NCBI GenBank assembly: GCA_951813615.1
Contig: OX638377.1
Location: 3,434,599 to 3,498,598, forward strand
From: an uncultured Latescibacterota bacterium
GTDB lineage: Bacteria; Latescibacterota; UBA2968; UBA8231
Length of the DNA stretch: 64,000 nucleotides
Direction: 5' to 3'
This document shows positions 4,922-52,864 of the stretch, piece by piece. Below the pieces are notes generated by a model. That model was not told where the DNA came from. It saw only the letters and a program-made list of their open reading frames with translations, and did no database searches. The position numbers and the translations under genes were made by a program. Every line of letters starts with the position of its first letter. Position 1 is the stretch's first letter.

Positions 4922-4940
4922 AATTACTCCCCTCGTTTGC

Positions 4941-6593: not shown

Positions 6594-6681
6594 AAAAAGA
6601 GGAGCTAGACGGAAGGTCCAGCTCCTCGCAATGAGATATCCTACCATGCTGTACTATCCAGATGCGGAGCAACGCCAGGAC

Positions 6682-7449: not shown

Positions 7450-7480
7450 AAAATTGCAACTCCCTTTTTGCTAGCTGTCG

Positions 7481-7900
7481 TCAATTGGTTGGTTCCTCGG
7501 TTTCAATGTCGATCTGTGCTACTCCCGCTATAGTCGCCATTTCCATCGCGTCGATGATATGGCCGTGCGCGGCATCGGCATCCGCGGTGATAATCAATGT
7601 CGATGAGCCGGTGCGGACCTTTTCGCGCTCTAGCCAACTTGCGAGCTGCCCCATGGCCACTAGCTGCCCGTTGATCTCAAGCTGACCCTCGCTCGAAATG
7701 CGCAGATTCAGCTTCTTCTCAGACTTGATCTGGTCGTAATGGACCGAATCGGGCAGCTCGATCTTGAGCTGGGTAGCCTTGACGAAGACCGTGGTGGTCA
7801 TAAAGAAGATCAGCAGCAGGAATACCGCGTCTATCATCGGCGTTAGATTCAGTTCAAATTCGCCGGCTTTTTCGGCCAGCGACTGTCTCCGTTTAGCCAT
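7481..7900 (-). CDS. exbD: ExbD/TolR-family biopolymer transport protein
   Basis: MAKRRQS...ELNLTPMIDAVFLLLIFFM is a single TM segment followed by a periplasmic domain, typical of ExbD. ATG at 7900 is preceded by GGAGAAGGA and avoids overlap with the upstream gene. Confidence 0.9.
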   Translation of the reverse strand: MAKRRQSLAEKAGEFELNLTPMIDAVFLLLIFFMTTTVFVKATQLKIELPDSVHYDQIKSEKKLNLRISSEGQLEINGQLVAMGQLASWLEREKVRTGSSTLIITADADAAHGHIIDAMEMATIAGVAQIDIETEEPTN

Positions 7901-7904
7901 GCCG

Positions 7905-8324
7905 CTATCCTTCTCCGCTCTTGGCGAAAGCGATGGCTTCAATGCCCTCGCCGCGGGCGATGTCCATCACCTGCACCACATAGGAGTGAGGTATTGAACG
8001 CGCGGACTCTAAGATCACGTTCTTGGTGTTGTCGGCCTCGATGACTTGGCGGATCTTTTCCGCCAAGCTCTCCTTATCCGTGACCTCGCCGTTGACTTGG
8101 ATCGTCTGATCCGGGTCAATCACGATGTTCATGTCCTTGGTCGCTCGCGACTCACCCTCGCCGCCCGGCAGATCTACGCTCAGGCCCTTGGGGTTGACGA
8201 AGGTAGTCGCCACCATAAAGAAAACCAATAGCAAGAACATGCAGTTGATAAGCGGTGTCAGATCCGGATTCTCCGAGGTCTTGAAGGCGCTTTTGCCGAA
8301 TCCGCTCTTTCGTCTTTGCCGCAT
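7905..8324 (-). CDS. exbD: ExbD/TolR-family biopolymer transport protein (second copy)
   Basis: 139-aa ORF. PDLTPLINCMFLLLVFFMV is the TM segment, and the periplasmic domain is ExbD-like. Confidence 0.9.
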   Translation of the reverse strand: MRQRRKSGFGKSAFKTSENPDLTPLINCMFLLLVFFMVATTFVNPKGLSVDLPGGEGESRATKDMNIVIDPDQTIQVNGEVTDKESLAEKIRQVIEADNTKNVILESARSIPHSYVVQVMDIARGEGIEAIAFAKSGEG

Positions 8325-8342
8325 CGCAGCGTCTCTTTCTGC

Positions 8343-9017
8343 CTAGCTGGCCTCCCGCTGGCTGGCTTGGAAGCGCACCAACAGGGTATTGGCAAAGGCG
8401 TGGCAGTATAGCTCCACGCTCTTGAAGACCTTTTCCGCGCGGCCGGAGAGGTAGCGGTGGAAGATGATGGTCGGAATGGCGACGATGAGGCCACTGGCCG
8501 TAGTAATCAGGGCCTCGGAGATGCCGCTGGCCACGGCCGCCGGATCGCCGGCCCCAGCGCGGGCAATCGCGTCAAACGCGTTAATCATACCCATGATCGT
8601 GCCCAACAACCCCATCAGCGGGGAGAGGACGCCAATGGTTCCCAGCGCGTTGAGCAGACGACCGAGATACATCTCACCGGCCTCCTCAGTGGCCAAGATC
8701 AACTCCTGACGCATGTCCTCTAGGTCCGTGCGATTTTCCAGCACTAAGGTATCGTAGCGCTTCACCAAGGCGGCGAAGATGAAGTTGAGTACGCCACTGC
8801 CCTGCCGGAATAGCTCGACGGCTCCGCCTTCGCCTTGGCTTTTGAGCACTTCCTCGGCCTCGTTCAGCTGCTGTTCGGCCTCCTCTTCGCCCGGGACCGC
8901 CAGCAGGCGCCACAGCCGTTCGATGATGATGGCTAGGGCAATCAGCAAGCAGAGCAACAGGGGCCACATAATAGGCCCGCCTTTGAAAAACTGGTCAACT
9001 AAAAAATTCTGCTCCAT
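8343..9017 (-). CDS. exbB: MotA/TolQ/ExbB proton-channel protein
   Basis: 224-aa ORF with three TM segments. The conserved C-terminal core is LGLLGTIMGMINAF....A.....VASGISEALITTASGLIVAIP. GGGAGG RBS. Confidence 0.9.
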   Translation of the reverse strand: MEQNFLVDQFFKGGPIMWPLLLCLLIALAIIIERLWRLLAVPGEEEAEQQLNEAEEVLKSQGEGGAVELFRQGSGVLNFIFAALVKRYDTLVLENRTDLEDMRQELILATEEAGEMYLGRLLNALGTIGVLSPLMGLLGTIMGMINAFDAIARAGAGDPAAVASGISEALITTASGLIVAIPTIIFHRYLSGRAEKVFKSVELYCHAFANTLLVRFQASQREAS

Positions 9018-9065
9018 TACAACCTCCCGGTATTGTGTCCTGCTTTGCGCTGCGTTGAAAGCTCG

Positions 9066-12000
9066 CTAGAGCCGGTTTTCCACGATCCACTCCCGGTGCA
9101 TCTTGGCAAAACTGACCACGTCGGCGTTTTCCGGCTTGTCCCCACCCTTTTCTTCTACTACCTGATAGTTTTCCACGGCCTGCGGCCACTGGCGCGTGAT
9201 TTCATAGACCAGCCCCAAGTTGCAATACGCAGCCAATTCGGTATAAGTGCCGGGATAATCGCGGATAATATCCTGCAGAGCCGGCACGGCCCGGTCGTAA
9301 TCTTTGGCCTCAAACAGCTTCATGGCCTCGTTGTAGCTAAAGCTGGCCTGGATCTCGCTTAGCTCTTCCACTAGGGCTGTGGCCCTCGACGCCTCCTCGG
9401 AGTTGGGATATAGCTTGAGCACTTGCTGGTAGGTCGCCATGGCCTCGTCGTAAGACTGGATATTGTAGTAGTAGTCGCCGATGGTAAACTGCGCTTTGGG
9501 AGCGAATTCGCTCTCTGGGTAATTGGCAACTAGGTTTTGCATTGCGCCTACTGCTTGCTCCATCTCCTCTTGTTCGACAAAGGACCAAGCCAACGCGTAC
9601 TGCGCCGATCCGCCGTATCGCCCCTGGGGATATTTGGCCAAGAGCGATTGGTACGCCGGCACGGCCTCGGCAAAGGCCTGCTCGTTGTAGTAGTTTTCGC
9701 CAATGAGGAAAAGCGCTTCTTCCTCGTATTGGGACTGGAGATAGCGCTCGACCAGTTCGGTAAAAGCGGCGGCAGCCTCCTTAAACTGGGTCAGGGCCTG
9801 AAGGCTGTGGGCCAGATAATACTGGCCGTGAATGCGGTTGGCATTGCGCGGATATTTGTCGACAAAGCTCCTGAAGCTTTTCGCGGCGGTGGCGTAGTCG
9901 CCGTAGCTGATTTCGGCAAAGCCCTTGGAGAAGGCCAAGTTGCCGCTCTCGCCCGAATTCGGATAGCGCTTGAGACCTTGGGCAAAGATGCGCGCGGCTT
10001 CCTCGTATTTCTTTTGCTGCAACAGCGCATTGCCGATGATGGAATAGGCGCGTTCCTTCCGGTAGTAACCAGCTTGATTGTCGTCTTCGAACTGCATGTC
10101 GAGGAGCTGGCGAGCGAAGTTTTCGGCTTGGATGAAGTCCTGCTGATCGTAGTACAGCTCGGTCAGCAGCATGCTAAAGGTCGCCCGCTCCTGCGGGTCG
10201 TCCGATGCGGCGATGAGCTCTTGATAGTAGCTAGCCGCTTCTTCTTGCCGCCCCAAGCGGATCATACCAGCCCCCAGCGTGCGGAAGGCGCTGTCCTTTA
10301 TCTGGGGTGCGGGATCGCTTTCGAGCAGGGCCTTCATATCCTCCAGCGATGCCTCATAGCTTACGCGGGCCTGAGCTGTGTCGCCGACGGCGTCTTGCTG
10401 TTTGGCGACCTCGTAGTACGCACCGCCGCGAGCCAGCAGCGAATTTTGCAGGATGTGCTCAGGGGGATTCAGCGCAATGGCCTGCCCCCAAGCGTCGATC
10501 GCACCGACGAAATTATCCTCGGCGAAATGCACCCGGGCCAAGGTGTAGTGCATCTGGCCTTTTAGGATATCGTCGCCGGCTCGATCCAAGGCACCAGAGA
10601 GAGCCTTGCGCGCCTTTTCGTACTCTTGTTTGCCCATGTACAGCTCGGCCAACTCGACCTGCACGGTGGGCCACTTGTCCCAACCCTCTTCCACCGTCTC
10701 ATAGGCAGCAATGGCGCTGTCTGTATCCTCGAGGCGCTTATAGGTAAGGCCCAACTCCATTCGCGTTGTATTGTGCAATTCCGACTCCGGAAAGCGGTCG
10801 AGGAAGGATGTATAGATCTCCTCGGCCCGTTTGAGTTCGGAGGCAGCATAGGCTATGCGGGCCAACTGCAAAAGGCCGTTGGGAGCCGCCGGATGGTCTG
10901 CATACTCATCGACTAACCGCTGGTACAACGGCTGTGCTACTTCGTTTTTCTTTAAGAGTTGATTGGCAAAGCCGGCGTTAAAAAGCACATCCGGTATCAG
11001 GGCATTGTCCTCGCGCTGGCTCAAGAGTTGGTCGTAGCTTTCGAGCGCCTTGGCAATCGCCTCGTCGGCTCTAGCCGGGTCTTCGTTGCGGATCTGCCGC
11101 CCGTATTCTTGGTGACACTGGGCAATGCGAAAGAGAACCTTGTAGCGGTCGAAGCCGATGCGCCGGGCCACATCGCCGTAGGCATTGAGGTATATCTCGT
11201 ACTCTTGCGCCGACTTGAGATATTCGTCCTGGTCGAAAAGCATCAGGGCAACCGTTAGCTGCGTCCGGGCTTGAAAGAGCTTGTCCTCGACCTTTTCGAT
11301 GGCGTCTTTGTACGCGGCGATGGCCGCGGTCGTGCCCTGCTCCTTCTGCACCAACTCGGCGGTGCGGATATAGCTATTTTGTACCAAGACCGGCTCAGCC
11401 GCGTACTCAGTTGGGAGCACGGCATAGGCGGCGAGGGCCTTGGCGACTTCGCCGTTGTTCGCGTAAATATCGCCCTTTTTCAGATGGGCCTTGGCGACCA
11501 ATTCGCGCGCTGTCTCCTTGACCAAACCCTTGAGCTTGAGGGTGGTCATTTCGATAATTTCTTCCTCGGTCATCTGCGCGAAATCGTAGCGAGCAATGAG
11601 GCGGTCGAGGTACTCCAGCGCCTCATCGTACTGCCCCAGCTTGTCGTAGCTTTCGGCGATCTGGAAGAGCGAGCGGTCGGCGTTAGAGCCTCTGGGGGCC
11701 AAGACCAACACCTGCTTGAAGCTGGCGATGGCCTCCTCGTAGCGCTCCAATTCATAATAGGACCACGCTCGGTCGTAGTGAACGGACGCCTCGTAGAGGC
11801 TGTGGGGGAAGCTGTGCAGCAGCGCGTCCCCTTGCTCTATGACCTGCTCGTACTCCTTGAGCTGATAGCTCGTCTGAATCATCTGGTACTGCGCCATCAC
11901 TCGGGTGCGATCATCGACGCTTGCGTCCGCAGCTAGCGTGCGGAAGTGGTCGCGGCTCTTGTTGAGGTCTTGCAGTGCCTCCTCGTAGCGAGCGTCGGCC

Positions 12001-12338
12001 TCGGTCTCTTTTTGCTCTGAGCGCAAAAACTGTGAGCGCTGCAATTTTTCGAGACCGAGCTTGTTGTATGTATTGCCTAGCTGGTAGGTAGCACCCACGC
12101 GCACCGGCAGAATGAACTCGTCAACCGCTACGGTTACGTCCTCCACGTTGATCATGGCGTTGCTCTCGGTGGAAAGAATCACCTCATAGCGCTCAATGGC
12201 CCTGTCGTAGTCCCCCAGCGCATAGAGCTTCTGACCTTCCTCAAAGCGGTCTTGCAACTCTACCGGCGAGAAAAAGCGCGTGCTCAAGCTGGCGGCCACG
12301 CCGACCGCTGCGACCAGCAGCAGATTTACCAGAATCAT
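9066..12338 (-). CDS. 1090-aa tetratricopeptide-repeat protein with N-terminal membrane anchor
   Basis: N-terminus MILVNLLLVAAVGVAASL is a TM segment or signal. The rest is continuous 34-residue A..Y...G.Y..A...F periodicity. AGGAG RBS. Confidence 0.85.
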   Translation of the reverse strand: MILVNLLLVAAVGVAASLSTRFFSPVELQDRFEEGQKLYALGDYDRAIERYEVILSTESNAMINVEDVTVAVDEFILPVRVGATYQLGNTYNKLGLEKLQRSQFLRSEQKETEADARYEEALQDLNKSRDHFRTLAADASVDDRTRVMAQYQMIQTSYQLKEYEQVIEQGDALLHSFPHSLYEASVHYDRAWSYYELERYEEAIASFKQVLVLAPRGSNADRSLFQIAESYDKLGQYDEALEYLDRLIARYDFAQMTEEEIIEMTTLKLKGLVKETARELVAKAHLKKGDIYANNGEVAKALAAYAVLPTEYAAEPVLVQNSYIRTAELVQKEQGTTAAIAAYKDAIEKVEDKLFQARTQLTVALMLFDQDEYLKSAQEYEIYLNAYGDVARRIGFDRYKVLFRIAQCHQEYGRQIRNEDPARADEAIAKALESYDQLLSQREDNALIPDVLFNAGFANQLLKKNEVAQPLYQRLVDEYADHPAAPNGLLQLARIAYAASELKRAEEIYTSFLDRFPESELHNTTRMELGLTYKRLEDTDSAIAAYETVEEGWDKWPTVQVELAELYMGKQEYEKARKALSGALDRAGDDILKGQMHYTLARVHFAEDNFVGAIDAWGQAIALNPPEHILQNSLLARGGAYYEVAKQQDAVGDTAQARVSYEASLEDMKALLESDPAPQIKDSAFRTLGAGMIRLGRQEEAASYYQELIAASDDPQERATFSMLLTELYYDQQDFIQAENFARQLLDMQFEDDNQAGYYRKERAYSIIGNALLQQKKYEEAARIFAQGLKRYPNSGESGNLAFSKGFAEISYGDYATAAKSFRSFVDKYPRNANRIHGQYYLAHSLQALTQFKEAAAAFTELVERYLQSQYEEEALFLIGENYYNEQAFAEAVPAYQSLLAKYPQGRYGGSAQYALAWSFVEQEEMEQAVGAMQNLVANYPESEFAPKAQFTIGDYYYNIQSYDEAMATYQQVLKLYPNSEEASRATALVEELSEIQASFSYNEAMKLFEAKDYDRAVPALQDIIRDYPGTYTELAAYCNLGLVYEITRQWPQAVENYQVVEEKGGDKPENADVVSFAKMHREWIVENRL

Positions 12339-12355
12339 GGTGTCAATCTCCTAGC

Positions 12356-15292
12356 CTAGAACCCTGCCACAATATCAAAGAACAGGCGCGAGTTGTCGAA
12401 GCTATCGGAAGCGCGAGTGGCGTCGTCGTACTCTCGGCTGGTTTTGATAAAGCCGAACTGGGAGGCGAGAGCGTAGCCGTAGTGATCCGAGCGGTTGCTC
12501 ATCATCAGCACCAGCGTCCATTCCTTAAAATCATTGCTATCATTCACCCGATCCAAGTTAGTGTGCCGCCAGAAAGGGAATCCTTGAAATCCGAGTTGCA
12601 GATTGGACTTAGCCGTCAGGTCGAAACGGGTCCGGACGATCGGCGCGTAAATTGAGAACGAGCGAATACTGCCATCGCCGGTGGCATCTTCGAGTACGCT
12701 AGAATGATCGCGCAAAAACAGGTGCTTGAACATCGGGCGGATGTTCAGGTTACCGGCGCTGATCGTATAGTCGAGTCGGTTGACCATCGTAAAGGTCGAA
12801 AGCACTCCGGCTTCCTGTTGGGTGCCGTCGTCGAACTCGTCTTCGGCTTGACTGTTGCGAATCCACTGGACGCTATTGATGACATTGAGGTTGGAAAGCT
12901 GCTGAAAGGTCGAGCTGATGAACAAGGTATTGACCAAGCTATTGCGCATGTTCAGCGGATCGACATCAGGCGGAAAAATCTGGGAATTGAGATCCTTTGC
13001 CTCAATCATCGGGCCTTTCAAATGTGGGACGGGGCTGGGTATCCGCTGGGTAAAACCCACGTCTTCCCAGACGTACACGTCGTCGCGAATGTCGTCTTGG
13101 ACCTGCTTGATATCCTCGTTGATGCGAATTTTGCCCAGATAGGGCGAGGTGAAGTTGTGCTCGTAGCGGGCATACATGGCCTTGGCCTCGCCACCACCGG
13201 CCGGCTCCTGCATAGTGTAATAGCCGACAGAGGCCCACTTGCCCCAGCGCCCCAAGCCTTTCTTCGTGGCCACAAAGTGAGCCCCTCGGCGGTCCCGTGG
13301 ATAGGGATAGTCGGGCAGGGCGTCGTTTTCGCGGTAATCGACTACGCCGTTGTTGTTGAAGTCGATGCCGTAGATGAAATCCGGCGGATCGGCGTCGTAA
13401 AAGAGGATCGGCTCGGTCCAATCGGGAATGCCGTTGAAATTCTGGTCGCTGTCCGGGATTAGGTCGTTGTTTTCGTCCAACCCAGGGAAAATGCCCGAAT
13501 CCGACTTTTCCGCACTGGGCAACTCGTTGATCATTTCGTCTGGCCACTGATCGTTGTCGTCATTATCGGTCATGACAAACATTTCCTGCATCTGTGGACA
13601 TACAAAGCAATCGTCGCTGAAGAAAGCCACGCCGCCACGGATGCTGTCGTAGTTGCCGCTGTAGTCCGGATCTAAGTTGAAAAATTCGCCGCCTAGCTCA
13701 ATCGGGCCTACTTCCTTTTGGGCCGTGAGGAAATAGCCGAGGGCCCGCTTGTCAAAGCGCTTGCCGGCATTGCTGCCCACTGGGAAGAGGAAGTACTGGG
13801 GATTGGCGACCAACTCGCCCTTTACTTTTAGCCCTTTGAGGCTTAGGTCCCAGTCCAACCCGTAAAGCGCCTGACCGGTGGGGATGCCGTAGTCGAACTC
13901 GACCACTTTGCGGCCCGCGTCGCTGCCGTCGGAGCGCAGGACCGTATAGCCTACCCGGCTTGGATCGAGCAGATCCCACTTGTATTGCAAAAACGGCTGC
14001 GCCTGAGTGAATGTCGGATCCGGCACCACCGGCCACTGCTTGAAGGCGTCGGGATTTTCTGCTATCACATCTTCAAGGGGCTTGACTCCGTCCTCGCCTT
14101 TCAGCCCGGTAAAAGGGTTGACGTAGCTCCGACCACCCGGAGCGTATCTGTCGTCCCCTTCGGCCACTTTGTCCACGTTCTTTTGGTGATCTCCTTGGTC
14201 AAAGAACAAGTGCTGTTGGCGCACCAAAATGCGATAGTCGCCCTCGACATCGGCCAAGAAGCGCACGGATTTCATCGTCAATCCCGGCACAAAGTCGTCG
14301 GGATCGGCCGAGTATTCCGAGGCATCCGGGAGGTTGAATTGCGGCATTTGGAAGCGGAAGACTACTTGCTCGCCGCCGGCTACCGACAACCCACCCTCGG
14401 CCCCGCCAATGGGATCGATCATCTTCAAGCTCGAGTCGTACTCAGGATCGCCTTCAATGCTGGTTAGGCGCACCCGCTGCCCCTGCGACTCACCAATGAT
14501 CACCACATCTACATCATAGACGGTGGCCGCTCGGATTATATCGTCGGGCGAATCGTCTTCGATAATGACTTCGATAAAAGAAGGCGGCAGCATGCTGTAC
14601 GGAGTATCGCCCTTGAGAAAGGAGCCGTTCTCATCGGCAGTATTGGCCATGTGCTGGTTGAAGTACGTGGCACCCATGCGCAGCACATTGCCCAGCTTAG
14701 TCTCCCAGTGGCCGCCAAAGATCAACACCGGCGAGGTCTCCCTAGTCGCCTTGAAGGTCGAAAACTTGGCGGCGTTCAACAGGTCGCCGCCTTGGCTCAG
14801 CATCAGGGTGAACCTGTTGTCCGAGGAAGCACCGTCGAGCAAGATGCCGAAGAAGCGCGGGTCGCTAAAGGTCAGGTCTGAAAACTTGGCGCGGATATCC
14901 TCACCCAAGGTCATTCGGTAATTCCAGCCCTTGTACGAGTCGTTGAGCATCACTAGGTTGGCGAACCACCCCAAGTACTGGGCCGTGCGGGTGTTGATAT
15001 TACTTTCCCCAGGGCGGGAAAATTCCCAAGTGAAGACATTGAAACCGCGCGACAGGTAATTGCCTAAGCGGTCGTAGCGATTGCGTGCGTTGATCACCGA
15101 AGGATAGGGATCGTACTCCTTGCGCCCGTAGTTCAAATACGGTTCGGGATGGCCGAGATTGAGGAAATCTCGGTTGCGCAGAAAGGTCTGCGCTTCGGCA
15201 TCGGCACCCAGCATTCCCAACCCAACAAACGCTAGTAGCGCGGTCCGTACCATTCTCTTTCTCGCATTACTACTCATGGCAGCTATCCTCAT
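12356..15292 (-). CDS. Large secreted protein, predicted outer-membrane beta-barrel with acidic Ca-binding-like insert (paralog of 19271..22276)
   Basis: Signal peptide ...LLAFVGLGMLGADAEAQ. The C-terminal residue is Phe (..FDIVAGF). It shares the FDYGIPTGQ, PGLDEN.D.IPD.D.N, GIDFNNN.V.D(Y/F)REND..PDYPYPRD and SPVL(I/L)FGGH blocks with the 1019-aa ORF. An alternative ATG at 15277 has a GAGGA RBS. Confidence 0.6.
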   Translation of the reverse strand: MRIAAMSSNARKRMVRTALLAFVGLGMLGADAEAQTFLRNRDFLNLGHPEPYLNYGRKEYDPYPSVINARNRYDRLGNYLSRGFNVFTWEFSRPGESNINTRTAQYLGWFANLVMLNDSYKGWNYRMTLGEDIRAKFSDLTFSDPRFFGILLDGASSDNRFTLMLSQGGDLLNAAKFSTFKATRETSPVLIFGGHWETKLGNVLRMGATYFNQHMANTADENGSFLKGDTPYSMLPPSFIEVIIEDDSPDDIIRAATVYDVDVVIIGESQGQRVRLTSIEGDPEYDSSLKMIDPIGGAEGGLSVAGGEQVVFRFQMPQFNLPDASEYSADPDDFVPGLTMKSVRFLADVEGDYRILVRQQHLFFDQGDHQKNVDKVAEGDDRYAPGGRSYVNPFTGLKGEDGVKPLEDVIAENPDAFKQWPVVPDPTFTQAQPFLQYKWDLLDPSRVGYTVLRSDGSDAGRKVVEFDYGIPTGQALYGLDWDLSLKGLKVKGELVANPQYFLFPVGSNAGKRFDKRALGYFLTAQKEVGPIELGGEFFNLDPDYSGNYDSIRGGVAFFSDDCFVCPQMQEMFVMTDNDDNDQWPDEMINELPSAEKSDSGIFPGLDENNDLIPDSDQNFNGIPDWTEPILFYDADPPDFIYGIDFNNNGVVDYRENDALPDYPYPRDRRGAHFVATKKGLGRWGKWASVGYYTMQEPAGGGEAKAMYARYEHNFTSPYLGKIRINEDIKQVQDDIRDDVYVWEDVGFTQRIPSPVPHLKGPMIEAKDLNSQIFPPDVDPLNMRNSLVNTLFISSTFQQLSNLNVINSVQWIRNSQAEDEFDDGTQQEAGVLSTFTMVNRLDYTISAGNLNIRPMFKHLFLRDHSSVLEDATGDGSIRSFSIYAPIVRTRFDLTAKSNLQLGFQGFPFWRHTNLDRVNDSNDFKEWTLVLMMSNRSDHYGYALASQFGFIKTSREYDDATRASDSFDNSRLFFDIVAGF

Positions 15293-40753: not shown

Positions 40754-40831
40754 CGGGGTGTGGCGCAGTCCGGTTAGCGCACCTGCTTTGGGAGCAGGAT
40801 GTCGTCGGTTCGAATCCGACCACCCCGACCA
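40754..40831 (+). tRNA. tRNA-Pro (anticodon UGG), CCA encoded
   Basis: Folded by hand. Acceptor stem CGGGGTG/CACCCCG, D stem GCGC/GCGC, anticodon stem CCTGC/GCAGG with loop TTTGGGA, T arm GTCGG-TTCGAAT-CCGAC, discriminator A plus CCA. Confidence 0.93.
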
Positions 40832-43830: not shown

Positions 43831-43894
43831 GACGGAGATAGTCCACTCGCGATGTATTACCTTATTATCTGTATATGGGCAAGGATCGAGATAT

Positions 43895-44740
43895 ATGAAC
43901 CACATCCAAATTATAGAGCAAGTTTACAACGCACTCTCTGCGAAGATCACCCAAGGCGAGATCCCTATTTCTCTTCGAGCCCCTACCTTAGTCGGCACAG
44001 TCCAAGACGCCCCATTTGACTGCTGGGTTGCGGATACGATCAGAGATGTGCTTCCAGATATCGAAGTATTCCACTCAGGGAAACTGACTACTCCGGATCT
44101 CGTGTTGAGATACAAGACGACCAACTCACTGCTCGGTCTCGAGGTCAAAAAGCTCATCCAAAAGGAGGACGGCAAAGACCCACGAGGTCTTACCATCGAC
44201 TACAATAGCTGTCTTCCCTGTGGAAAAGCCCTCGTGAAGGTCGGCGAGAACACTGTCGAGGTGCCTTGCTTTTATTTTTTTGCACTTCTCAGTCCCAATA
44301 GTTCTTCGATGGTCACAACAATCCTGACGGACGGAGACTTCCTCAACTACGATTTTGATCTTCATAAAGACGCAAAGTATGCAAATCAAAGCGAGTATAA
44401 CCATGGTCCATACGGAGAAGGCTCCGTCCGCCATCGCAAGATGTACACCTATCCAAATCCACTCAACTACAAGCTGAGCTTTTTTTATTTGCGCCACCTT
44501 CTAATCGTGAAACAATACGACCTTCCATCTATTGCGGCACGAAGAGTCTCCTGCACAGACTTGATTATCCGTGATGACAAGTATAAGAACTCTTTTCGCT
44601 ACATCGTGATCGATGCTACGAAAAATAGAGCGAAGCCGTTGCCACTCGATGAGCTGCCCGTGCAGCAAGACGTTTTTAAGATGTGCAAAGCGCGTAGGCC
44701 AAAGGAGCGAACCGCCTCCATGCCGCAGCTCCCGGAGTAA
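43895..44740 (+). CDS. PD-(D/E)XK nuclease-like protein (candidate restriction endonuclease)
   Basis: 281-aa ORF. TTPDLVLRYKTTNSLLGLEVKKL contains P67-D68 ... E83-V84-K85, the PD-(D/E)XK catalytic pattern. It ends 3 nt before the methyltransferase gene. I recognise no other family motif. Confidence 0.5.
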   Translation: MNHIQIIEQVYNALSAKITQGEIPISLRAPTLVGTVQDAPFDCWVADTIRDVLPDIEVFHSGKLTTPDLVLRYKTTNSLLGLEVKKLIQKEDGKDPRGLTIDYNSCLPCGKALVKVGENTVEVPCFYFFALLSPNSSSMVTTILTDGDFLNYDFDLHKDAKYANQSEYNHGPYGEGSVRHRKMYTYPNPLNYKLSFFYLRHLLIVKQYDLPSIAARRVSCTDLIIRDDKYKNSFRYIVIDATKNRAKPLPLDELPVQQDVFKMCKARRPKERTASMPQLPE

Positions 44741-44743
44741 AGG

Positions 44744-46936
44744 ATGCCCCGACTCATAGAGAACGATTTTCCGTATGCTCGTCTTTCCGTGATTGCAGAG
44801 GCCGAATCGTGGAGAAAAGAAGTCCACCGTCCAGTCTATTACATCCATAAATGGTGGGCGCGTAGATTGGGATCTGTTTTTCGGGGTATTTTGCTGGGTG
44901 CATGTCTCGACGAGAAAGAGGACTTCTGGAAGTGCTTTTATGGGAAGAACGATTTTGCTAAAACTGTAATTTTTGACCCTTTCATGGGGAGTGGAGTTAC
45001 CATAGGAGAAGCGATTAAGCTTGGTTGTACCACTTTAGGTCAAGATATCAATCCAGTTTCGTATCTCGCATGTCGTGCTGCCTTCACGAAGTACGATCCG
45101 TCCGAAGTCGTCGCTACATATCAACTCCTTGAGCACACGGTCGGCCCCAAACTACTGAACTACTTCGAGACGCGAACAGAAGAAGGTAGTAGGGCAACCG
45201 TACTGTACTACTTTCTCGTCAAGGTTGTGTCATGTCCACAATGCGACGAACAGATCGACCTTTTCAAGTCTCGTATTTTCTCAAAGAACGCCGTCCCGCG
45301 CAAAGACCCTAGTGCCCGTGCACTTTGCCCTAGTTGCGGTGCCGTTAACGCGACTCTCTATGATGCTGATTACGTGAAGTGCTCGGATTGTGGCACAACG
45401 TACAACCCACAACAAGGCAATATCAAAGGGGCGAAAGTCGAATGCGATAAATGCGGCCATACATTCCGCCTTGTTGAGCGGATGAAATCAATACGTGGCC
45501 CTCTTGGTTATCGCCGGTACGCCAAGATGATTCTCACCACGGATGGACAAAAACGATACGCTTCTATGAATGCTTTCGATGACGCCCTTTTAGAAGACAT
45601 CGCACAAGAGTTTACTTCCATCAGATCCTCCTTTCCTCAGATTGAAATCACACCGGGTTACAATACAAATCAGATTTTGAAGCACAACTACCGCTTCTGG
45701 CACGAGTTGTTTTCCGATAGACAGCTCCTTTGCATCCACCACTTACGGGAAGCGATTCGTCAGATTGACCACGCCGATCATAGACTCCTCTTTGCCTGTC
45801 TGTTCTCTGGAGTGCTTGAGTTCAATAACCTATTTGCATCTTTCAAGGGGGAAGGAACAGGGGCCGTACGGCACATGTTTTCACATCATGTCCTCAAACC
45901 TGAAGTGATGCCAATTGAAGCAAATGTCTGGGGTACGAGTAAGTCGTCTGGATCATTTTCTACCTTGTTCCGCTCTCGCATCCTAAATGCGCTTGCCTAC
46001 AAAGCTGATCCAACAGAACTCTATGTGACATCGGGGAAGAACAGTAAAGTTGGAGGAATCAATCGACCTCTCGCCATCCCGGTTTCCAACGAGTTTGCCT
46101 TGTCCAATAATGGGAACGACGCAGTTTATCTCACTCAAGGCGATTCCAGTCGTACCAGTATTCCAGCCCGCAGTGTGGATATCATTGTAACTGATCCCCC
46201 ATTCTTCGACAATGTTCACTACTCCCAACTCGCCGATTTTTTCTTTTACTGGCTTAACCAGCTTTTGGATTATTCCAAAGCCGAAACGACGAGACGGAAA
46301 GACGAAGTCCAAGATACGAGTTCTGTTCTCTTCGCAAACAAACTGACATCCGTGTTCTCCGAATGCCACCGCGTTCTCAAGCATACCGGGCTTCTCGTGT
46401 TCTCCTATCACCATGCTCGACACGAAGGGTGGACATGTGTCCATAGAGCTATACGACATGCCGGATTCGTGTGCAAACAGGCTTATCCGATTAAGGCTGA
46501 AATGTCTGTTTCCACGCCTCTGAAACAGGCAAAGACGCCGATACATTTGGACTTGATACTCGTCTGCGGCAAGGAAAACAACGGGATTGCCCACCACGTC
46601 GCTAACGTCGACATTACTCATGTTCTCCGCAGTGCAGAGGACCAAATTCGCGCCCTCAAATCGGCTAATATATCCGTCTCACTTGGAGATGCGAAGGTGA
46701 TTCTCATGGGACGCTTCCTATGCGAAGCTCACCGCCTGTGGAACCTGGACAAGGAAGAGACGTTCCTGGCCGATATTGAAAGACATATTGACGACTACGT
46801 AGCTGACGTGATCAAAGTCCAAGGAGAGGCTCTATATACACAAGACCCCTCTGAACAACTGGTCCTTTTTGAAGAGATGGCCAAGTATTTGACCCATAGG
46901 GAGAATTCGGAACAAGGCGGTAAATCGCGGCCTTAA
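44744..46936 (+). CDS. DUF1156-family DNA methyltransferase with internal zinc ribbons
   Basis: N-terminus FPYARLS..AE.ESWRKE.....IHKWWARR is the DUF1156 hallmark. DPFMGSGVTIGEAIKLGCTTLGQDINPV is the SAM motif I. VTDPPFFDNVHYS (aa 484-487 DPPF) is the catalytic motif IV. Four CxxC pairs are present (CPQC/CPSC, CSDC/CDKC). Confidence 0.75.
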   Translation: MPRLIENDFPYARLSVIAEAESWRKEVHRPVYYIHKWWARRLGSVFRGILLGACLDEKEDFWKCFYGKNDFAKTVIFDPFMGSGVTIGEAIKLGCTTLGQDINPVSYLACRAAFTKYDPSEVVATYQLLEHTVGPKLLNYFETRTEEGSRATVLYYFLVKVVSCPQCDEQIDLFKSRIFSKNAVPRKDPSARALCPSCGAVNATLYDADYVKCSDCGTTYNPQQGNIKGAKVECDKCGHTFRLVERMKSIRGPLGYRRYAKMILTTDGQKRYASMNAFDDALLEDIAQEFTSIRSSFPQIEITPGYNTNQILKHNYRFWHELFSDRQLLCIHHLREAIRQIDHADHRLLFACLFSGVLEFNNLFASFKGEGTGAVRHMFSHHVLKPEVMPIEANVWGTSKSSGSFSTLFRSRILNALAYKADPTELYVTSGKNSKVGGINRPLAIPVSNEFALSNNGNDAVYLTQGDSSRTSIPARSVDIIVTDPPFFDNVHYSQLADFFFYWLNQLLDYSKAETTRRKDEVQDTSSVLFANKLTSVFSECHRVLKHTGLLVFSYHHARHEGWTCVHRAIRHAGFVCKQAYPIKAEMSVSTPLKQAKTPIHLDLILVCGKENNGIAHHVANVDITHVLRSAEDQIRALKSANISVSLGDAKVILMGRFLCEAHRLWNLDKEETFLADIERHIDDYVADVIKVQGEALYTQDPSEQLVLFEEMAKYLTHRENSEQGGKSRP

Positions 46937-46966
46937 ATGAGGTTGGACGTAAAGAAAGCAACAAAC

Positions 46967-48114: not shown

Positions 48115-49383
48115 TCATGGTAAACTCACTTCCTGTCGTCGCGCATCGTTAGCGGCTGTGGTCCGAATTAGACCTCCATCGCCGCGCCGCGAACTCATTC
48201 CGACTGCGCCTTGCAGCGACCCGTCCACTTTGTGGATAGGGTCGTCCGCCACGCCGGGGAAGTAGCGCTCTACGGGCGACCAGTCGGAACTGGCAACGAT
48301 CGTGGGCACCGACCCGACGAATCCAGTGTCCGTGCCTCCCTCGTCGATGCTAATGCCGTTCGCATCGACATCGTCAAATTCCACCTGATAGCGGTATACT
48401 AATCGGTTGGTGTCGGAGCCGGACAGGTACTCTGCCACGCGGGTGTTGAGGTCGTTGGCAGCATCGCCGACCCGAATGACAATCCAAGAGTCGTCCTCGG
48501 GCACGTACACGTCCGTGTTGAACGTCAAGGCGATGTCAATGTTCTCGCCATAGTGATAAGTGCGACCGTTGACTGGTGTCGATATGATCTCGGTCTTGTA
48601 GGCGCGGTGCGGACTGGGACGGCCCTCGACCCGTATCCTGAGAGTCTTGTTGGGATCTCTTTCCCACTTGATACCGCCAGCGCTCCGCAAGCCGAGATAA
48701 TTGTGGAGGGCCCATCCCTCTTTGGCCTCTGAATCTTCTCTGAAGCTGTAGGTTGTAGTGAATTGAGCGACGTTGCCGTTTGCGTGACCTGCGCCGCAAT
48801 TGAGAAGCAAGTAGTAATCCGCGCTCGGCTCTAAATAGGTGTTCTCCGGTGCCTGCCATTCATTGTGTGCAAAGTCGTCCAAGCGACTTCTGGTCAGATC
48901 AGCTACCTTGGTGATAAGGTAGCCCTCGCGGTGATAGAGGCCCGCGTTTATCGTCCTGTACCGGCTCTCATTCGCAGCGCGCACATCTAGCGAAATATCC
49001 GTCAATTCATACCCACCCTGATTCGGGCCGGTTCTAAACCCCTGATACAGTCCGTCCTGATTCTCACACAGGGTTACGATTCTGTCTGATCCTGAAGATT
49101 GCTGCATATTCGTCACGAGTATGGTAATCGGCGAATCGTATTCAGCGCGTGCAGTCACGGCGACGACAAGTGCAGCGGCCACAGCCAAAATCACCGCTCC
49201 AGTCCGGTGCCAGCCACCCTGGGGCTTGGCGGACACGTGGTCTTGCCGTTGCCACAGTCGAACCCGGCGTCTGATATTCAGCCCCCTGAGGTCGCGACGG
49301 CTTGTCGCCCGCCGTTGTAAGGTCCCTCCCCCAACATCTGCCACTATCCGCCTGTCAAGCTTGTCACCCAGCACAGTTATCAT
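48115..49383 (-). CDS. Array copy A: truncated paralog (leader + N-terminal passenger only; Calx-beta and barrel lost)
   Basis: ATG at 49383 after GGGAGG. MITVLGDKLDRRIVAD... and the passenger align with copy C up to ..HKVDGSLQ. The frame then breaks at a deletion junction near 48216-48222 and ends after 37 unrelated codons. This is probably a pseudogene. Confidence 0.7.
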   Translation of the reverse strand: MITVLGDKLDRRIVADVGGGTLQRRATSRRDLRGLNIRRRVRLWQRQDHVSAKPQGGWHRTGAVILAVAAALVVAVTARAEYDSPITILVTNMQQSSGSDRIVTLCENQDGLYQGFRTGPNQGGYELTDISLDVRAANESRYRTINAGLYHREGYLITKVADLTRSRLDDFAHNEWQAPENTYLEPSADYYLLLNCGAGHANGNVAQFTTTYSFREDSEAKEGWALHNYLGLRSAGGIKWERDPNKTLRIRVEGRPSPHRAYKTEIISTPVNGRTYHYGENIDIALTFNTDVYVPEDDSWIVIRVGDAANDLNTRVAEYLSGSDTNRLVYRYQVEFDDVDANGISIDEGGTDTGFVGSVPTIVASSDWSPVERYFPGVADDPIHKVDGSLQGAVGMSSRRGDGGLIRTTAANDARRQEVSLP

Positions 49384-49445
49384 GACCGGCCTCCCTCTCT
49401 TGCATTGCCAGCTAAGATGAAAAACTCCTCTCTGCCAATGCTTAT

Positions 49446-49462
49446 TGCATAAACCGTGCCAA
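49446..49462 (-). promoter_or_regulatory. Sigma54 (-24/-12) promoter of copy A
   Basis: The minus strand reads TTGGCACGGTTTATGCA, i.e. GG-N10-GC with TGGCACG-N4-(A)TGCA, 63 nt upstream of the ATG. Confidence 0.75.
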
Positions 49463-49656
49463 ACTTTTAGTGGACGGCCTAAGTCATTTATAAAAAGGAT
49501 GTTAGGAAAATTAATGCGGGAAGATGAAGAGTGCCGAAATGATGCGGAATTAAACAACTTGCAAGATGCAGAATGAAAAGAAGAGGCGTCTAACTATCTG
49601 AAATCGCGTTAGTTATGGCGCGATTTGCGGTATTTACAGCGGTAACCGCTTACTAT

Positions 49657-49673
49657 TGCAACAGTTGCAACAG
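49657..49673 (-). promoter_or_regulatory. Palindromic upstream element (candidate enhancer/UAS)
   Basis: TGCAACAGTTGCAACAG contains the palindromes TGCAAC-A-GTTGCA and GTTGCAAC. It lies 195 bp upstream of the -24 element. Confidence 0.4.
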
Positions 49674-49772
49674 TCAATTCGGAACGGAGAGGTATTGACC
49701 TAGATTGTCAGCTTGGTCTCTGCCCGGCTGGCAGGTAGGTCGATGATATCTTCCGTAGGTTCCAAAATTGCA

Positions 49773-49843: not shown

Positions 49844-52789
49844 CTATGGCGCTGAGAGCGCCAAGTGCAGCATGACCTCGCGGTCCGGTGCCCTGTTGTC
49901 GACAGTGCTCTCGCGCTGCGTCCCCTCAATACCCATCTCCAGCCCTTCCCAGCGCAATAACTCCAGCCGATAGCCCATACGTACCTCGCGGAAGGCCTCA
50001 GACTGCCCCACCCGTAGGTAGGGCGTTCCCGTAGCCCGACCACCGAACACCGCCAGCCCGTAGGCCGCCTCCGCGTCAAGACGACCAGCCGACGCAATCG
50101 CGTCGTTCGCCGCCAGTCCCACCAGCGTCTCCCGCCCCAACAGCGCCGCCACACCGCCCGAGGACACCCCTCCCCAGGACGGCGTCAGCGCCACGGCCGG
50201 ACCCAGCGCCGAAGACGGCGTCGAATCGAAGCGCAGCGACCCTGATACCCTCCAGTCCCGAAAGTCCGAAGTCTCGTGCGCCACCAAGCCACGCACCATC
50301 ACCTGCGCCATCAGCCCCCGCGCCGCATCGGCAAAGACCGTACCGCCGCCTACCTCCACCCCAAAGCCCGTCTCTGCGTCGCCGCCGTCATGGCGCAACC
50401 CCAACTCGACCGTCGGTGTCAGCAACCCACCGCCTAGCGCAAGATCCAAGGACCCCTCCAGCCCCAAGCGCAGGCGGCTCACATCCGCCACCGCCGCGGC
50501 CAGCAGGCCCGACGGATCCACTGCCGCCGCCGAGGTCGTGCGCACCAACAGCGCATCCGACTCAACCGCCAGCGACAGACCGCCGGCTTGCCGTGCGGAG
50601 ACGAGGTCGCCCCGCACTCCGACCGCAGCCATCGTCAGACCCATAGCGGTGTGGTGAGACTCCCCGTCCTTCATCATCAATGCCAAGTCACCCTGACCGT
50701 AACCTGCCGTACCCCACAGCGACAGCCGCTCCGTCAGTTCGTAGCCGGCATAGGGATACAGGCCCGTCAGCGACGACGCCATGCGTCCTTGGCCGCGATC
50801 CGCCGAACGCCAGTTACCGTCCCCCCTGCTGTGAGACAGTGGCAGCCCCACCACCCAGCGCCCAACGGCGTAATCAGCACCCAACATCCCTGTCGTCACG
50901 CCGCCATCAAGCGAGAGACCGTTAGCACTCCCGCCAAAGCCCGAATACCCCCCACGGCCCCAAAGGGTACCAAGGCCACCGACTGTTTCACTACCCACGG
51001 TAAACGCACTTCCCGCCATGAGGTCGCGCATCGTCAGCGACTGCGGCCCGAACTGGACCTCGGTCGCCTCGTCGCGGTTCCATTCCGACTGCGGCTTGAA
51101 GCGATCCTGTGCGGTGACTTCACCTATGCCGCTGAGATCATGGCCCGCAACAGTAGCCTTAATCCCCGCCTCGTGCGGTGCCCTCAGACGCGCCTGCACG
51201 CCGTCGAGCACGCGCTGTGCCACAGTGCGACCAAAGCGCGCCAGCCAAGCTTGTTGCAACGGATCTTCGTTCTCGATCGTGCCCGTCGCCGTGTCGTCCG
51301 CAATACGCGCCCCCGAGGCATTGCTCAAGGTCAGCGTCAGGGTCTCCTCGCCCTCGTCGTGGGCATCGTCGAGCACCGCGACTGAAACCGTCTTCTGCGT
51401 CTCGCCCGCGGCGAAGGTGAGTGTCCCCTCTGCGGCCGTGTAGTCTTGGCCCGCCTGGGCGGTGCCGTCTGCGGTCGCGTAGTCCACCGTCACCGTCTCC
51501 GAGGCCGCCCGGTTCAGCATCACCGTGAATTCGAGCGTTGCGTCCGCCGCCTCCGTCGTCCGCGCATCCGCAATTGACAGCGCCGCTGCCCTTCCGGCGA
51601 TGCAGTGGGCCGACCCGTCCTCCAGGACGGTACAGTGGACCGACCCATCCACCTTGTGGCTAGGGTCATCGGCCACACCGGGGTAATAGCGATCTACGGG
51701 CAACAAGCCTAAACTAGCGACGAGCGTGGGCACCCATCCAACGAATCCGGTGTCCGGCCCGCCCTCGTCAACGCTAAGGCCGTTTGCGTCGGCATCGTTG
51801 AGTTGCACCTCATAGCGGTAGATCAACTGAGTCGTGAAGGAGCCGGACAGGTAGGCTGCCTGGCCAGCCACATCGCCGACCTGAATGCCAATGGACGATT
51901 CGCCCTGCACGTACACGGGCGTGTTGAACGTCAGGGCGATATCGATGTTTTCTCCTACTAGGTAGGTGTCCCCGTTTGTCGGCGTCGATACGATCTCGGT
52001 CTGGTAGGCGCGGTGGTAACTGGGACGTCCCTTGACCTCTATCTTGAGAATCAAGCGAGAGCCCCATTTCCACTCGGGATCACCCGCGGTCCGAAAGCCG
52101 CAATGATCGTGGATTTCCCATCCTTCTTCGGCCCCGGGGTCGTCTTCACTGCTGTAGGTCGTGAGGAATTGGGCCACGTTGTCATTGGCGCAACCTGCCG
52201 TGCAATCAAGCAGGAAGTAATACTCCGTGTCCGGCTCCAGATAGGTATTTTCAGGTGCCCACCACTCATTGGCCGCAAAGTCGTTCAACTGGCCTCTGGT
52301 GAGCTTGGCGACGCGGGTGAAGCCGGATTCGTCCCAGAGGTAGATGCCTGCGTCTATCGTCATGTATCGGCTCTCATGGGTGTCGTGCACATGCAGCACA
52401 ATGCTCGTCAATTCATACCCCCCGAGATTGGGGCCGGTTCTGAATGCCTGATTAAGTCCGTCCTGAGACGCATCCAGCAACACAACTCTCCCCGATGATG
52501 GTTGGTCGGTATTCTTCGCCAGCGTTCTGATCGGCGGATCATACTCCTGAGCAGGGGCAGTCGCCGCGATCACAAGGACGCTGGCTGCCGCCAGCAGCAC
52601 CGCTCCAATCCGCCATGCGCCGCCTTGCGGTCTGGCCGACCCATGGTCTTGCCGTTGCCATAGTCGAACCCGACGCCCGATATTCAACCCTCTGAGGCCG
52701 CGATGGCATGTCGCCCGCCGTTGTGAGTCCTCTGCCCCAGCATCTGCCACCACCCGCTTGTCAAGCTTGTCAATCAGCACAGTTATCAT
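49844..52789 (-). CDS. Array copy B: surface protein with long leader, N-terminal passenger modules, one Calx-beta domain and C-terminal autotransporter-type beta-barrel
   Basis: ATG at 52789 after AGGAGG. Calx-beta signature VTVDYATADGTAQAGQDYTAAEGTLTFAAGETQKTVSVAVLDDAHDEGEETLTLTLSNA. The C-terminal ~370 aa (GGLGTLWGRGGYSGFGG...GADYAVGRWVVGL.LSHS...) show the typical autotransporter beta-domain pattern. Confidence 0.75.
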   Translation of the reverse strand: MITVLIDKLDKRVVADAGAEDSQRRATCHRGLRGLNIGRRVRLWQRQDHGSARPQGGAWRIGAVLLAAASVLVIAATAPAQEYDPPIRTLAKNTDQPSSGRVVLLDASQDGLNQAFRTGPNLGGYELTSIVLHVHDTHESRYMTIDAGIYLWDESGFTRVAKLTRGQLNDFAANEWWAPENTYLEPDTEYYFLLDCTAGCANDNVAQFLTTYSSEDDPGAEEGWEIHDHCGFRTAGDPEWKWGSRLILKIEVKGRPSYHRAYQTEIVSTPTNGDTYLVGENIDIALTFNTPVYVQGESSIGIQVGDVAGQAAYLSGSFTTQLIYRYEVQLNDADANGLSVDEGGPDTGFVGWVPTLVASLGLLPVDRYYPGVADDPSHKVDGSVHCTVLEDGSAHCIAGRAAALSIADARTTEAADATLEFTVMLNRAASETVTVDYATADGTAQAGQDYTAAEGTLTFAAGETQKTVSVAVLDDAHDEGEETLTLTLSNASGARIADDTATGTIENEDPLQQAWLARFGRTVAQRVLDGVQARLRAPHEAGIKATVAGHDLSGIGEVTAQDRFKPQSEWNRDEATEVQFGPQSLTMRDLMAGSAFTVGSETVGGLGTLWGRGGYSGFGGSANGLSLDGGVTTGMLGADYAVGRWVVGLPLSHSRGDGNWRSADRGQGRMASSLTGLYPYAGYELTERLSLWGTAGYGQGDLALMMKDGESHHTAMGLTMAAVGVRGDLVSARQAGGLSLAVESDALLVRTTSAAAVDPSGLLAAAVADVSRLRLGLEGSLDLALGGGLLTPTVELGLRHDGGDAETGFGVEVGGGTVFADAARGLMAQVMVRGLVAHETSDFRDWRVSGSLRFDSTPSSALGPAVALTPSWGGVSSGGVAALLGRETLVGLAANDAIASAGRLDAEAAYGLAVFGGRATGTPYLRVGQSEAFREVRMGYRLELLRWEGLEMGIEGTQRESTVDNRAPDREVMLHLALSAP

Positions 52790-52847
52790 GACCGGCCTCC
52801 TTCTCTTTATGCCAGCTAGGATGAAAACTCCTCTCTGCCAATGCTTA

Positions 52848-52864
52848 TGCATAAACCGTGCCAA
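52848..52864 (-). promoter_or_regulatory. Sigma54 (-24/-12) promoter of copy B
   Basis: The minus strand reads TTGGCACGGTTTATGCA, 59 nt upstream of the ATG. The ORF-track TTG start is simply the TTGG of this element. Confidence 0.75.

Follow-up and report, generated by a model that had tools for sequence, protein, structure and literature searches.

A horizontally acquired two-gene islet in a Latescibacterota genome very probably encodes a Type II restriction-modification system with a predicted nuclease of an uncharacterised PD-(D/E)XK family

Introduction

The SalI system of Streptomyces albus G is reportedly specific for GTCGAC and is said to consist of a nuclease of 315 amino acids (aa), R.SalI, encoded upstream of a methyltransferase of 587 aa, M.SalI, which forms N6-methyladenine (m6A). 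R.SalI has been classed as a PD-(D/E)XK enzyme by sequence analysis, and the Pfam model RE_XamI presumably represents another enzyme cutting GTCGAC. The systems HgiDII, BbrUII and CmuRB25ORF14775P (from Chania) act on the same sequence with methyltransferases that form 5-methylcytosine (m5C). In the Chania system a nuclease gene of 735 bp (about 244 aa) lies upstream of the methyltransferase gene, in tandem and with a 3-bp overlap, while in R.HgiDII a GHKL ATPase domain occupies the N-terminus and the C-terminal domain is unassigned. Here we describe an islet of two genes (43895-46936) in a stretch of 64,000 nucleotides (nt) from an uncultured Latescibacterota bacterium (assembly GCA_951813615.1, contig OX638377.1, positions 3,434,599 to 3,498,598 of the forward strand), which is called the window below and to whose numbering all positions refer unless a related locus is named. 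The islet is very probably a horizontally acquired, orthodox Type II restriction-modification (R-M) operon, probably of subtype IIP, with the two-gene architecture of a nuclease (R) and a methyltransferase (M).

The first open reading frame, ORF1 (43895..44740, + strand), encodes a predicted Type II restriction endonuclease of 281 aa from an uncharacterised PD-(D/E)XK family, and the second, ORF2 (44744..46936, + strand), a DNA amino-methyltransferase of 730 aa which is DUF1156-like and has motif I before motif IV. In its predicted Type IIP organisation, with R before M in one operon and a putative adenine methyltransferase, the pair resembles SalI, and it would share the GTCGAC target if the avoidance signal presented below has been read correctly; the tandem R-before-M order is also that of the Chania system. 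ORF2 differs from M.SalI in its length, its DUF1156-like N-terminus and a zinc-ribbon insert, and from the methyltransferases of the HgiDII group in that it is not a C5 enzyme; C5 methylation at GTCGAC has its parallel in a sister clade of ORF1 homologues that are partnered by C5 enzymes. Against library models, which may include those of the SalI and XamI nucleases, ORF1 gave no match in Pfam or PADLOC at E ≤ 1. Identity of ORF1 with R.HgiDII was considered and rejected, since the latter carries a GHKL domain.

An earlier note on this DNA, made from the letters alone, had proposed the pair as a restriction-modification unit, perhaps a minimal or novel variant. Our data bear out the first part of this proposal, since a methyltransferase gene follows the nuclease gene in every resolvable locus, and speak against the second, as the architecture is the classic one of two-gene Type II systems.

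Results and discussion

Linkage of nuclease and methyltransferase

The nuclease and the methyltransferase are encoded by separate, adjacent and co-inherited genes. ORF1 is a small stand-alone protein with no ATPase, translocase or methyltransferase domain and has a conserved (P)D...(D/E)XK triad on the second and third core strands, ORF2 carries motifs I and IV, and no gene for a specificity (S) or Res/helicase subunit was found beside the pair in the window or in syntenic loci. In both, the pair is flanked by metabolic genes, and no helicase, ATPase, specificity or Res gene lies nearby.

A scan with one genome per species yielded 80 loci encoding a relative of ORF1. In all 76 loci that could be resolved, the next gene downstream of the nuclease gene encodes a methyltransferase, the other four loci ending at a contig edge. 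The partner is an ORF2-type methyltransferase (700-780 aa, 41-96% identity to ORF2) in 39 of the 80 loci and an unrelated C5-cytosine methyltransferase (about 380 aa; PF00145 is recorded for such partners) in 37, and in a neighbour-joining tree the nucleases fall cleanly into two clades, one with only ORF2-type partners and one with only C5 partners. The two-gene unit is the sole module conserved across hosts in these 76 loci. A nuclease that always stands beside a methyltransferase, and does so with partners from two unrelated families, bears the signature of a Type II restriction enzyme. More distant members of the superfamily also adjoin ORF2-type methyltransferases in other orientations, and in L096 the two genes are convergent and overlap. 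Among eight loci on viral contigs, a neighbouring ORF matches the ORF1 profile in five. The label "modification methylase ngoMIV", which JGI attaches to one of the C5 partners, was not used for assigning specificity, as it derives from a best hit and the word GCCGGC shows no depletion.

Probable recognition site

Type II systems that have long resided in a host often deplete their own site in its genome. Observed and expected counts of words of 4 to 6 bases were therefore compared in the DNA flanking the cassette, with a maximal-order Markov model for each locus. Around carriers of the ORF2-type version (402 kb, 39 loci), GTCGAC was found 29 times against 152 expected, and no other of the 2,080 hexamer classes is as strongly depleted. 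None of the 39 loci reaches its expected count, and among the 64 palindromes GTCGAC takes one of the first three ranks in every one of six separate host groups. The window without 43895-46936 holds 10 copies against 43 expected and its syntenic relatives 5 against 30; in the whole window there are 11 sites, one of them within ORF2 at 46607. The non-carrier controls were four loci from related genomes without the cassette at this locus, three of which keep the aminotransferase-GSDH neighbourhood with the site empty. Here GTCGAC occurs 59 times against 65.6 expected and ranks 28th of 64, and the difference between carriers and non-carriers has a binomial p of 2e-12. Within the orthologous block from aminotransferase to GSDH, the carriers checked have 0-2 copies, and two non-carriers have 3 each.

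Depletion in carriers but not in non-carrier relatives suggests a SalI-like specificity, and on balance we regard GTCGAC as the probable target, a statistical assignment held with restrained confidence. The existence of both m6A and m5C systems for this sequence agrees with the pairing of ORF1 homologues with two kinds of methyltransferase. Should the site be right, the match of ORF1 to none of the Pfam or PADLOC nuclease models suggests that the family may represent another independent protein solution to the recognition of one and the same sequence.

Two other palindromes are depleted in the window without the cassette, CTCGAG (4 against 22.8 expected) and CAGCTG (3 against 17.9). Taken together with GGCGCC, whose count is given below, they hint at further R-M systems in the genome with XhoI-, PvuII- and NarI/KasI-like sites.

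The depletion also bears on the possibility that the cassette is a decaying or domesticated remnant, in which an orphan and perhaps regulatory methyltransferase survives beside an ORF1 that is no longer an active restriction enzyme. Elsewhere in the family, truncated nucleases do stand beside the methyltransferase (in L020, L045, L034 and L063, the L020 methyltransferase itself being reduced to 589 aa), and the cassette has been kept at one chromosomal site in several Latescibacterota species. The ORF1 of the window, however, is full length with every family-invariant residue intact, the nuclease diverges at about the rate of the flanking housekeeping genes, no frameshifts were seen, and the depletion of GTCGAC in the window and its syntenic relatives argues for sustained restriction pressure. 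We therefore consider a remnant unlikely, and a functional Type II operon remains the preferred interpretation.

The nuclease

The predicted catalytic core of ORF1 (44093..44149, + strand) consists of P67-D68 (44093-44098) and E83-V84-K85 (44141-44149). In an alignment of 29 homologues D68, E83 and K85 never vary and P67 hardly does; in a superfamily alignment of 32 members (22-55% identity) P67 is invariant and the other three residues are at least 90% conserved, and this pattern persists down to 22-29% identity. The most conserved block of the protein lies further downstream (44330..44464, + strand; residues 146-190, DGDFLNYD...HGPYGEGSVRHRKMYTYPNPL) and shows dense invariant columns in the 29-member alignment, with G147, N151, D153, G171, R179, R181, M183 and P189 conserved superfamily-wide too. 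The block possibly provides DNA contacts or a second active-site element.

The AlphaFold2 model of ORF1 (pLDDT 76.6, pTM 0.81, with low confidence at residues 163-183) is a single alpha/beta domain in which helix 41-52 is followed by strands 56-60, 69-73 and 79-88. D68 stands immediately before strand 69-73, and E83 and K85 lie within strand 79-88, a modelled layout that fits the classic arrangement of the PD-(D/E)XK core. When the model was searched against the PDB with Foldseek, the top matches were EcoRV (E = 0.014, probability 0.91, TM 0.28/0.35), SfiI and SwaI, with MutH, Hjc and HindIII ranked lower. ORF1 shares with the EcoRV-like (beta-class) enzymes EcoRV, SfiI and SwaI the PD...(D/E)XK motif on consecutive strands and a small single domain. 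It differs in that the similarity is marginal (E = 0.014-0.05, TM 0.23-0.35, 9-15% identity), there is no detectable sequence homology and the block 146-190 has no identifiable counterpart. As model-based evidence these matches would lend weak support to a PD-(D/E)XK fold, and none speaks against it. The PD...E.K signature that the earlier note had seen in the 281-aa protein is thus conserved across the family, in a protein whose model weakly resembles Type II endonucleases.

ORF1 had also been called family-less, which holds in so far as no Pfam family covers it. It fails in so far as the protein has 704 close homologues, a wider superfamily, and two relatives named "Restriction endonuclease" in UniRef (from Shewanella glacialipiscicola and Shiella aurantiaca; hypothetical at NCBI). 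The 704 homologues were found at E ≤ 0.001 in a word-indexed search and are spread over many phyla; the best 120 of them are 55-96% identical to ORF1, nearly all with 277-290 aa. Searching 50%-identity representatives exhaustively brought up 142 related clusters, whose wider members have about 260-340 aa and align across residues 35-193 at about 30-40% identity. At E ≤ 1, ORF1 had no match in Pfam, NCBIfam or PADLOC 2.0, and no other domain was found in it; PDB sequences yielded no meaningful match to the single sequence or to two profiles, and tblastn against annotated plasmids and phages gave no match. Pfam scans of ten distant relatives and PADLOC scans of 32 superfamily members were likewise without a match.

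This leaves a gap in the annotation of defence systems and methylomes, as the nuclease and 32 members of its superfamily match no PADLOC model and the nuclease itself has none in Pfam or NCBIfam. Since the nuclease matches no model, such systems are probably scored as orphan methyltransferases. The gap extends over more than 700 close homologues, many of them in sponge-associated Latescibacterota, Binatia and Poribacteria and in gut and rumen Bacteroidales.

A different role for ORF1 would be that of a methyltransferase-associated accessory nuclease, such as a nicking repair enzyme of the Vsr or MutH kind, or of a DNA-binding specificity factor. Half of the family does stand beside C5 methyltransferases, where genes for Vsr-type very-short-patch repair are common, and MutH is among the weak Foldseek matches. 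The other half, however, adjoins an amino-methyltransferase, where deamination repair has no role, since a Vsr-like function is sensible only beside C5 enzymes, and no sequence match to the Vsr or MutH families was found in Pfam or NCBIfam. Moreover, the self-contained two-gene unit moves between phyla in the manner of R-M systems, and the carrier-specific depletion of one palindrome is a footprint to be expected of restriction and not of repair. An accessory role is thus very unlikely, and we take ORF1 to be the putative restriction endonuclease of the pair.

The methyltransferase

The sole Pfam family above threshold for ORF2 is PF01555 (N6_N4_Mtase; 4e-12, 47 bits against a cutoff of 26.7). 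Its profile matches as two swapped pieces, positions 1-83 aligning with ORF2 residues 478-586. The SAM (S-adenosylmethionine)-binding motif I (44975..44995, + strand; DPFMGSG, residues 78-84) is invariant in the family alignment and aligns with the motif I found at the C-terminus of the beta-class enzymes M.MboIIA, RsrI and CcrM, while the catalytic motif IV (46190..46210, + strand; TDPPFFD, residues 483-489), in which D484, P485 and P486 are invariant and followed by F or Y, aligns with the N-terminal end of such enzymes. The motif order of ORF2 is thus circularly permuted relative to the beta class. Beta-class N6/N4 methyltransferases (PF01555: M.MboIIA, M.RsrI, CcrM and M.PvuII) thus share the above-threshold family and both motifs with ORF2 and differ from it in order: theirs runs IV-VIII, target-recognition domain, X-I, whereas in ORF2 motif I (78-84) precedes motif IV (484-487), with about 400 residues between the two.

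The N-terminal segment (44768..44914, + strand; residues 9-57, including HKWWARRLGSVFR) is DUF1156-like, and the pattern ES.RKE..RP.Y..HKWWA.RLGS.FR is invariant in the family alignment. The match to the DUF1156 family PF06634 over these residues is sub-threshold (16.2 bits, E = 0.012, gathering threshold 24), and NCBIfam NF042963, a profile of about 960 positions, gave 103 bits in three partial stretches against a cutoff of 1000. PADLOC returned only partial matches, to PglXI (1e-25), DUF1156_MTase (3e-20), HmaB (7e-17) and MTase_II. With the DUF1156 methyltransferases of defence systems (PF06634, NF042963 and the PADLOC models DUF1156_MTase, HmaB and PglXI) ORF2 shares HKWWA.R, a long insert and the placement of its motifs, with I close to the N-terminus and IV, of the form (D/N)PP(F/Y), in the C-terminal half; its catalytic half (residues 446-640) aligns with their profiles. 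It differs from them in being about 230 aa shorter than the profiles of 940-960 positions, in scoring far below their cutoffs, and in its partner, a small Type II nuclease, with no ATPase or helicase partner in the flanks of the window or in the related loci listed.

The DUF1156-like N-terminus that had been noticed in the second protein is a real though sub-threshold likeness, and all the motifs noted for the two proteins were confirmed, those of ORF1 at the residues that had been given and those of ORF2 with HKWWARR at 35-41, DPFMGSG at 78-84 and DPPF at 484-487. The view that ORF2 is a shortened, 730-aa version of a DUF1156 protein did not hold. A length of about 730 aa is normal across a family of 5,763 homologues, of which the top 120 all have 712-763 aa except for two partial entries, and ORF2 is therefore, as far as sequence comparison goes, a full-length member of a strongly conserved family of its own (700-780 aa) and not a truncated DUF1156 protein. 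In a related locus of Bacteroidaceae (L071, 6841-9390), the ORF2-type methyltransferase has 849 aa and ends in an additional domain of about 130 aa, which the other aligned members lack.

Between the two motifs lies a cysteine-rich insert (45233..45454, + strand) with four CxxC pairs, C164/C167, C195/C198, C213/C216 and C234/C237, and with below-threshold Pfam zinc-ribbon matches at 195-245. C195, C198, C213 and C216 are invariant, and the outer pairs are lost in a distant clade (L070, L071, L074, L085, L086, L088 and L089). The insert would form two predicted zinc ribbons and is a candidate for the target-recognition module.

In amino-methyltransferases, D/NPP[YF] goes with methylation of N6 of adenine and SPP[YF] with that of N4 of cytosine. 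From its DPPF motif, ORF2 probably methylates N6 of adenine. Foldseek with the ORF2 model returned only generic Rossmann-fold SAM methyltransferases.

The partial matches of ORF2 to PglXI, DUF1156_MTase and HmaB and to NCBIfam DUF1156_antiphage could also mean that the pair belonged to a larger multi-gene defence system of the DUF1156 type (Hma-, BREX- or DISARM-like), of which it is a fragment, with the ATPase or helicase partners elsewhere. We consider this very unlikely and the least probable of the alternatives: these matches are partial and far under their cutoffs, the two-gene unit is itself the conserved module, and neither in the window nor in those relatives for which neighbouring genes were listed does the pair adjoin a gene for an ATPase, a helicase or PglZ.

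Proposed mechanism and points against it

If the islet is a Type II operon, R and then M would be co-transcribed and probably translationally coupled. ORF2 would methylate the adenine of a short specific site on both strands with SAM as methyl donor and so mark the host chromosome. ORF1, presumably as a homodimer, would cut unmethylated sites with Mg2+ through D68, E83 and K85, so that incoming phage or plasmid DNA without the modification would be cut and the 11 GTCGAC sites of the window protected. In this scheme the enzymatic activities, the dimer state, adenine as the base modified, the precise recognition sequence and the point at which it is cut are all inferred.

Several points weigh against the interpretation of the islet as a GTCGAC-specific Type II system. 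No sequence profile ties ORF1 to any characterised endonuclease, and the structural matches are weak, none in the PDB reaching E ≤ 0.001 (TM about 0.25-0.35). Adenine as the target base has the DPPF rule as its sole basis, and the AlphaFold model of ORF2 is poor (pLDDT 58.8). As regards the site, the non-carrier control set is small (85 kb, one lineage), GTCGAC ranks only fifth around the C5-partnered clade (29 observed, 61 expected), and in the window without the cassette GGCGCC is more depleted than GTCGAC (2 observed, 30.8 expected). The order of R before M, with no controller gene and no internal promoter detected, offers no ready account of how the chromosome of a newly entered host is modified before the nuclease can cut it. 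In the literature we found no biochemical or methylome data for any member of the family and no methylome report for a carrier strain, and among the papers listed as mentioning DUF1156 none deals with this family by its title or abstract.

A wider interpretation is more tentative, and we rate it a little short of an even chance. According to this, ORF1 would found an as yet uncharacterised structural family of Type II endonucleases, with a superfamily of varying specificity, and would have reached SalI-type recognition of GTCGAC independently of SalI/XamI and HgiDII, while ORF2 would be a circularly permuted, zinc-ribbon-bearing branch of the DUF1156 lineage acting as a plain Type II modification enzyme. 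If so, it would suggest a relation between the large DUF1156 methyltransferases of defence systems and the methyltransferases of simple R-M systems. The ORF2 family forms a link between simple Type II methyltransferases and the DUF1156 lineage of multi-gene defence systems. The general understanding of restriction-modification is left unchanged by the islet.

Islet composition and gene layout

The AT-rich islet over both genes that had been perceived in sampled lines was confirmed by windowed calculation. The guanine plus cytosine content (GC) of 43895-46936 is 0.483, against 0.601 (standard deviation 0.026) over all 3-kb segments that lie clear of it (z = -4.5), and this is the GC minimum among the 3-kb stretches of the window. 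In a sliding profile GC falls with sharp edges from 0.60-0.66 to 0.47-0.50 between about 43750 and about 47000. At third codon positions GC is 0.57 in ORF1 and 0.51 in ORF2, compared with 0.75-0.78 in the four upstream genes and 0.66 in the downstream gene.

The two genes are tightly linked with a gap of 3 nt, as had been described. At the R-M junction (44734..44743, + strand; TCCCGGAGTAAAGGATG) a GGAG Shine-Dalgarno sequence within the 3' end of ORF1 is followed by the TAA stop, the 3-nt gap and the ATG of ORF2, which it closely precedes; this sequence suggests that the two genes are probably translationally coupled. Upstream of ORF1 lies an AT-rich intergenic leader of 64 nt (43831..43894, + strand) with AAGGA about 10 nt 5' of the ATG, presumably the promoter and ribosome-binding region. 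A consensus scan found no sigma-70-like promoter in 43831..43894, and promoter and terminator scans gave nothing above shuffled expectation, with no + strand promoter 5' of either gene.

Also as proposed earlier, the neighbours are a pyrroloquinoline quinone (PQQ) dehydrogenase and an aldo/keto reductase, here assigned as a GSDH/PQQ-type dehydrogenase upstream (PF07995 in orthologous loci) and PF00248 downstream. The first ATG of the aldo/keto reductase (46937) abuts the methyltransferase stop, and its orthologues (329 aa) begin 30 nt later, at about 46967.

Origin and mobility

The genes flanking the cassette are 88-97% identical to those of syntenic Candidatus Latescibacterota loci, which keep the order aminotransferase, cytochrome c, GSDH, R, M and vary in the region downstream. 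More distant relatives (L100-L102 and L111, aminotransferase 74-77% identical) lack the cassette at this place; there, a PhyH gene stands 5 nt behind the block of aminotransferase, cytochrome and GSDH. Of the 68 loci whose flanks are long enough to measure, 65 have a cassette richer in AT than those flanks. The cassette stands in unrelated gene contexts in different phyla, with homologues in Binatia, Poribacteria, Desulfobacterales, Bacteroidota, Gammaproteobacteria and one archaeal metagenome-assembled genome; a copy on an Opitutales contig has 90-92% amino-acid identity. Foreign composition together with the empty site in relatives shows that horizontal acquisition of the cassette, as had been suspected, is well supported. 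In the window, no direct or inverted repeats were found that convincingly flank the cassette, nor is there an integrase or transposase next to it. The only tRNA gene in the window, tRNA-Pro(TGG) at 40754-40831 (+), lies between the genes for orotidine monophosphate (OMP) decarboxylase and the aminotransferase; it is probably not the integration site, as 3 kb with intact genes separate it from the cassette downstream.

In gut and rumen Bacteroidales (L005-L008, about 4500-12700), the C5-partnered version is cargo of a mobilisable integrative element with the gene order DUF3853, AAA_25, Mob_Pre relaxase, R, C5 methyltransferase, FRG-domain protein and tyrosine integrase. A contig of 3.8 kb binned as an uncultured archaeon (L032, 708-3767) carries the same pair, the nuclease at 71% and the methyltransferase at 55% identity, and reflects either cross-domain transfer or a binning error.

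The truncated nucleases beside a methyltransferase have 242 aa in L020 (6001-8495), 205 aa in L045 (6001-6618), 216 aa in L034 (6190-6840) and 159 aa in L063 (6112-6591), the methyltransferase being shortened too in the first of these. These loci look like the ordinary decay of R-M cassettes to orphan methyltransferases.

Downstream of the cassette lies a variable hotspot. In a strain-level relative (L011, 14362-17510), a HipA-like toxin gene split by an IS1595 transposase stands downstream of the cassette, in the place where other relatives carry a gene for a hypothetical protein of 425 aa and a Calx-beta gene, and in L016-L019 the aldo/keto reductase is absent. Further downstream in the window, two adjacent minus-strand genes (48115-49557 and 49844-52864) have paralogous N-terminal regions of about 450 aa, as seen when the translations were compared by eye. 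The longer paralogue (1006 aa) runs on into a region that carries Calx-beta in orthologous loci, and the shorter one resembles a truncated duplicate. Between the two lies a second local dip in GC (0.49, at 49250-49750).

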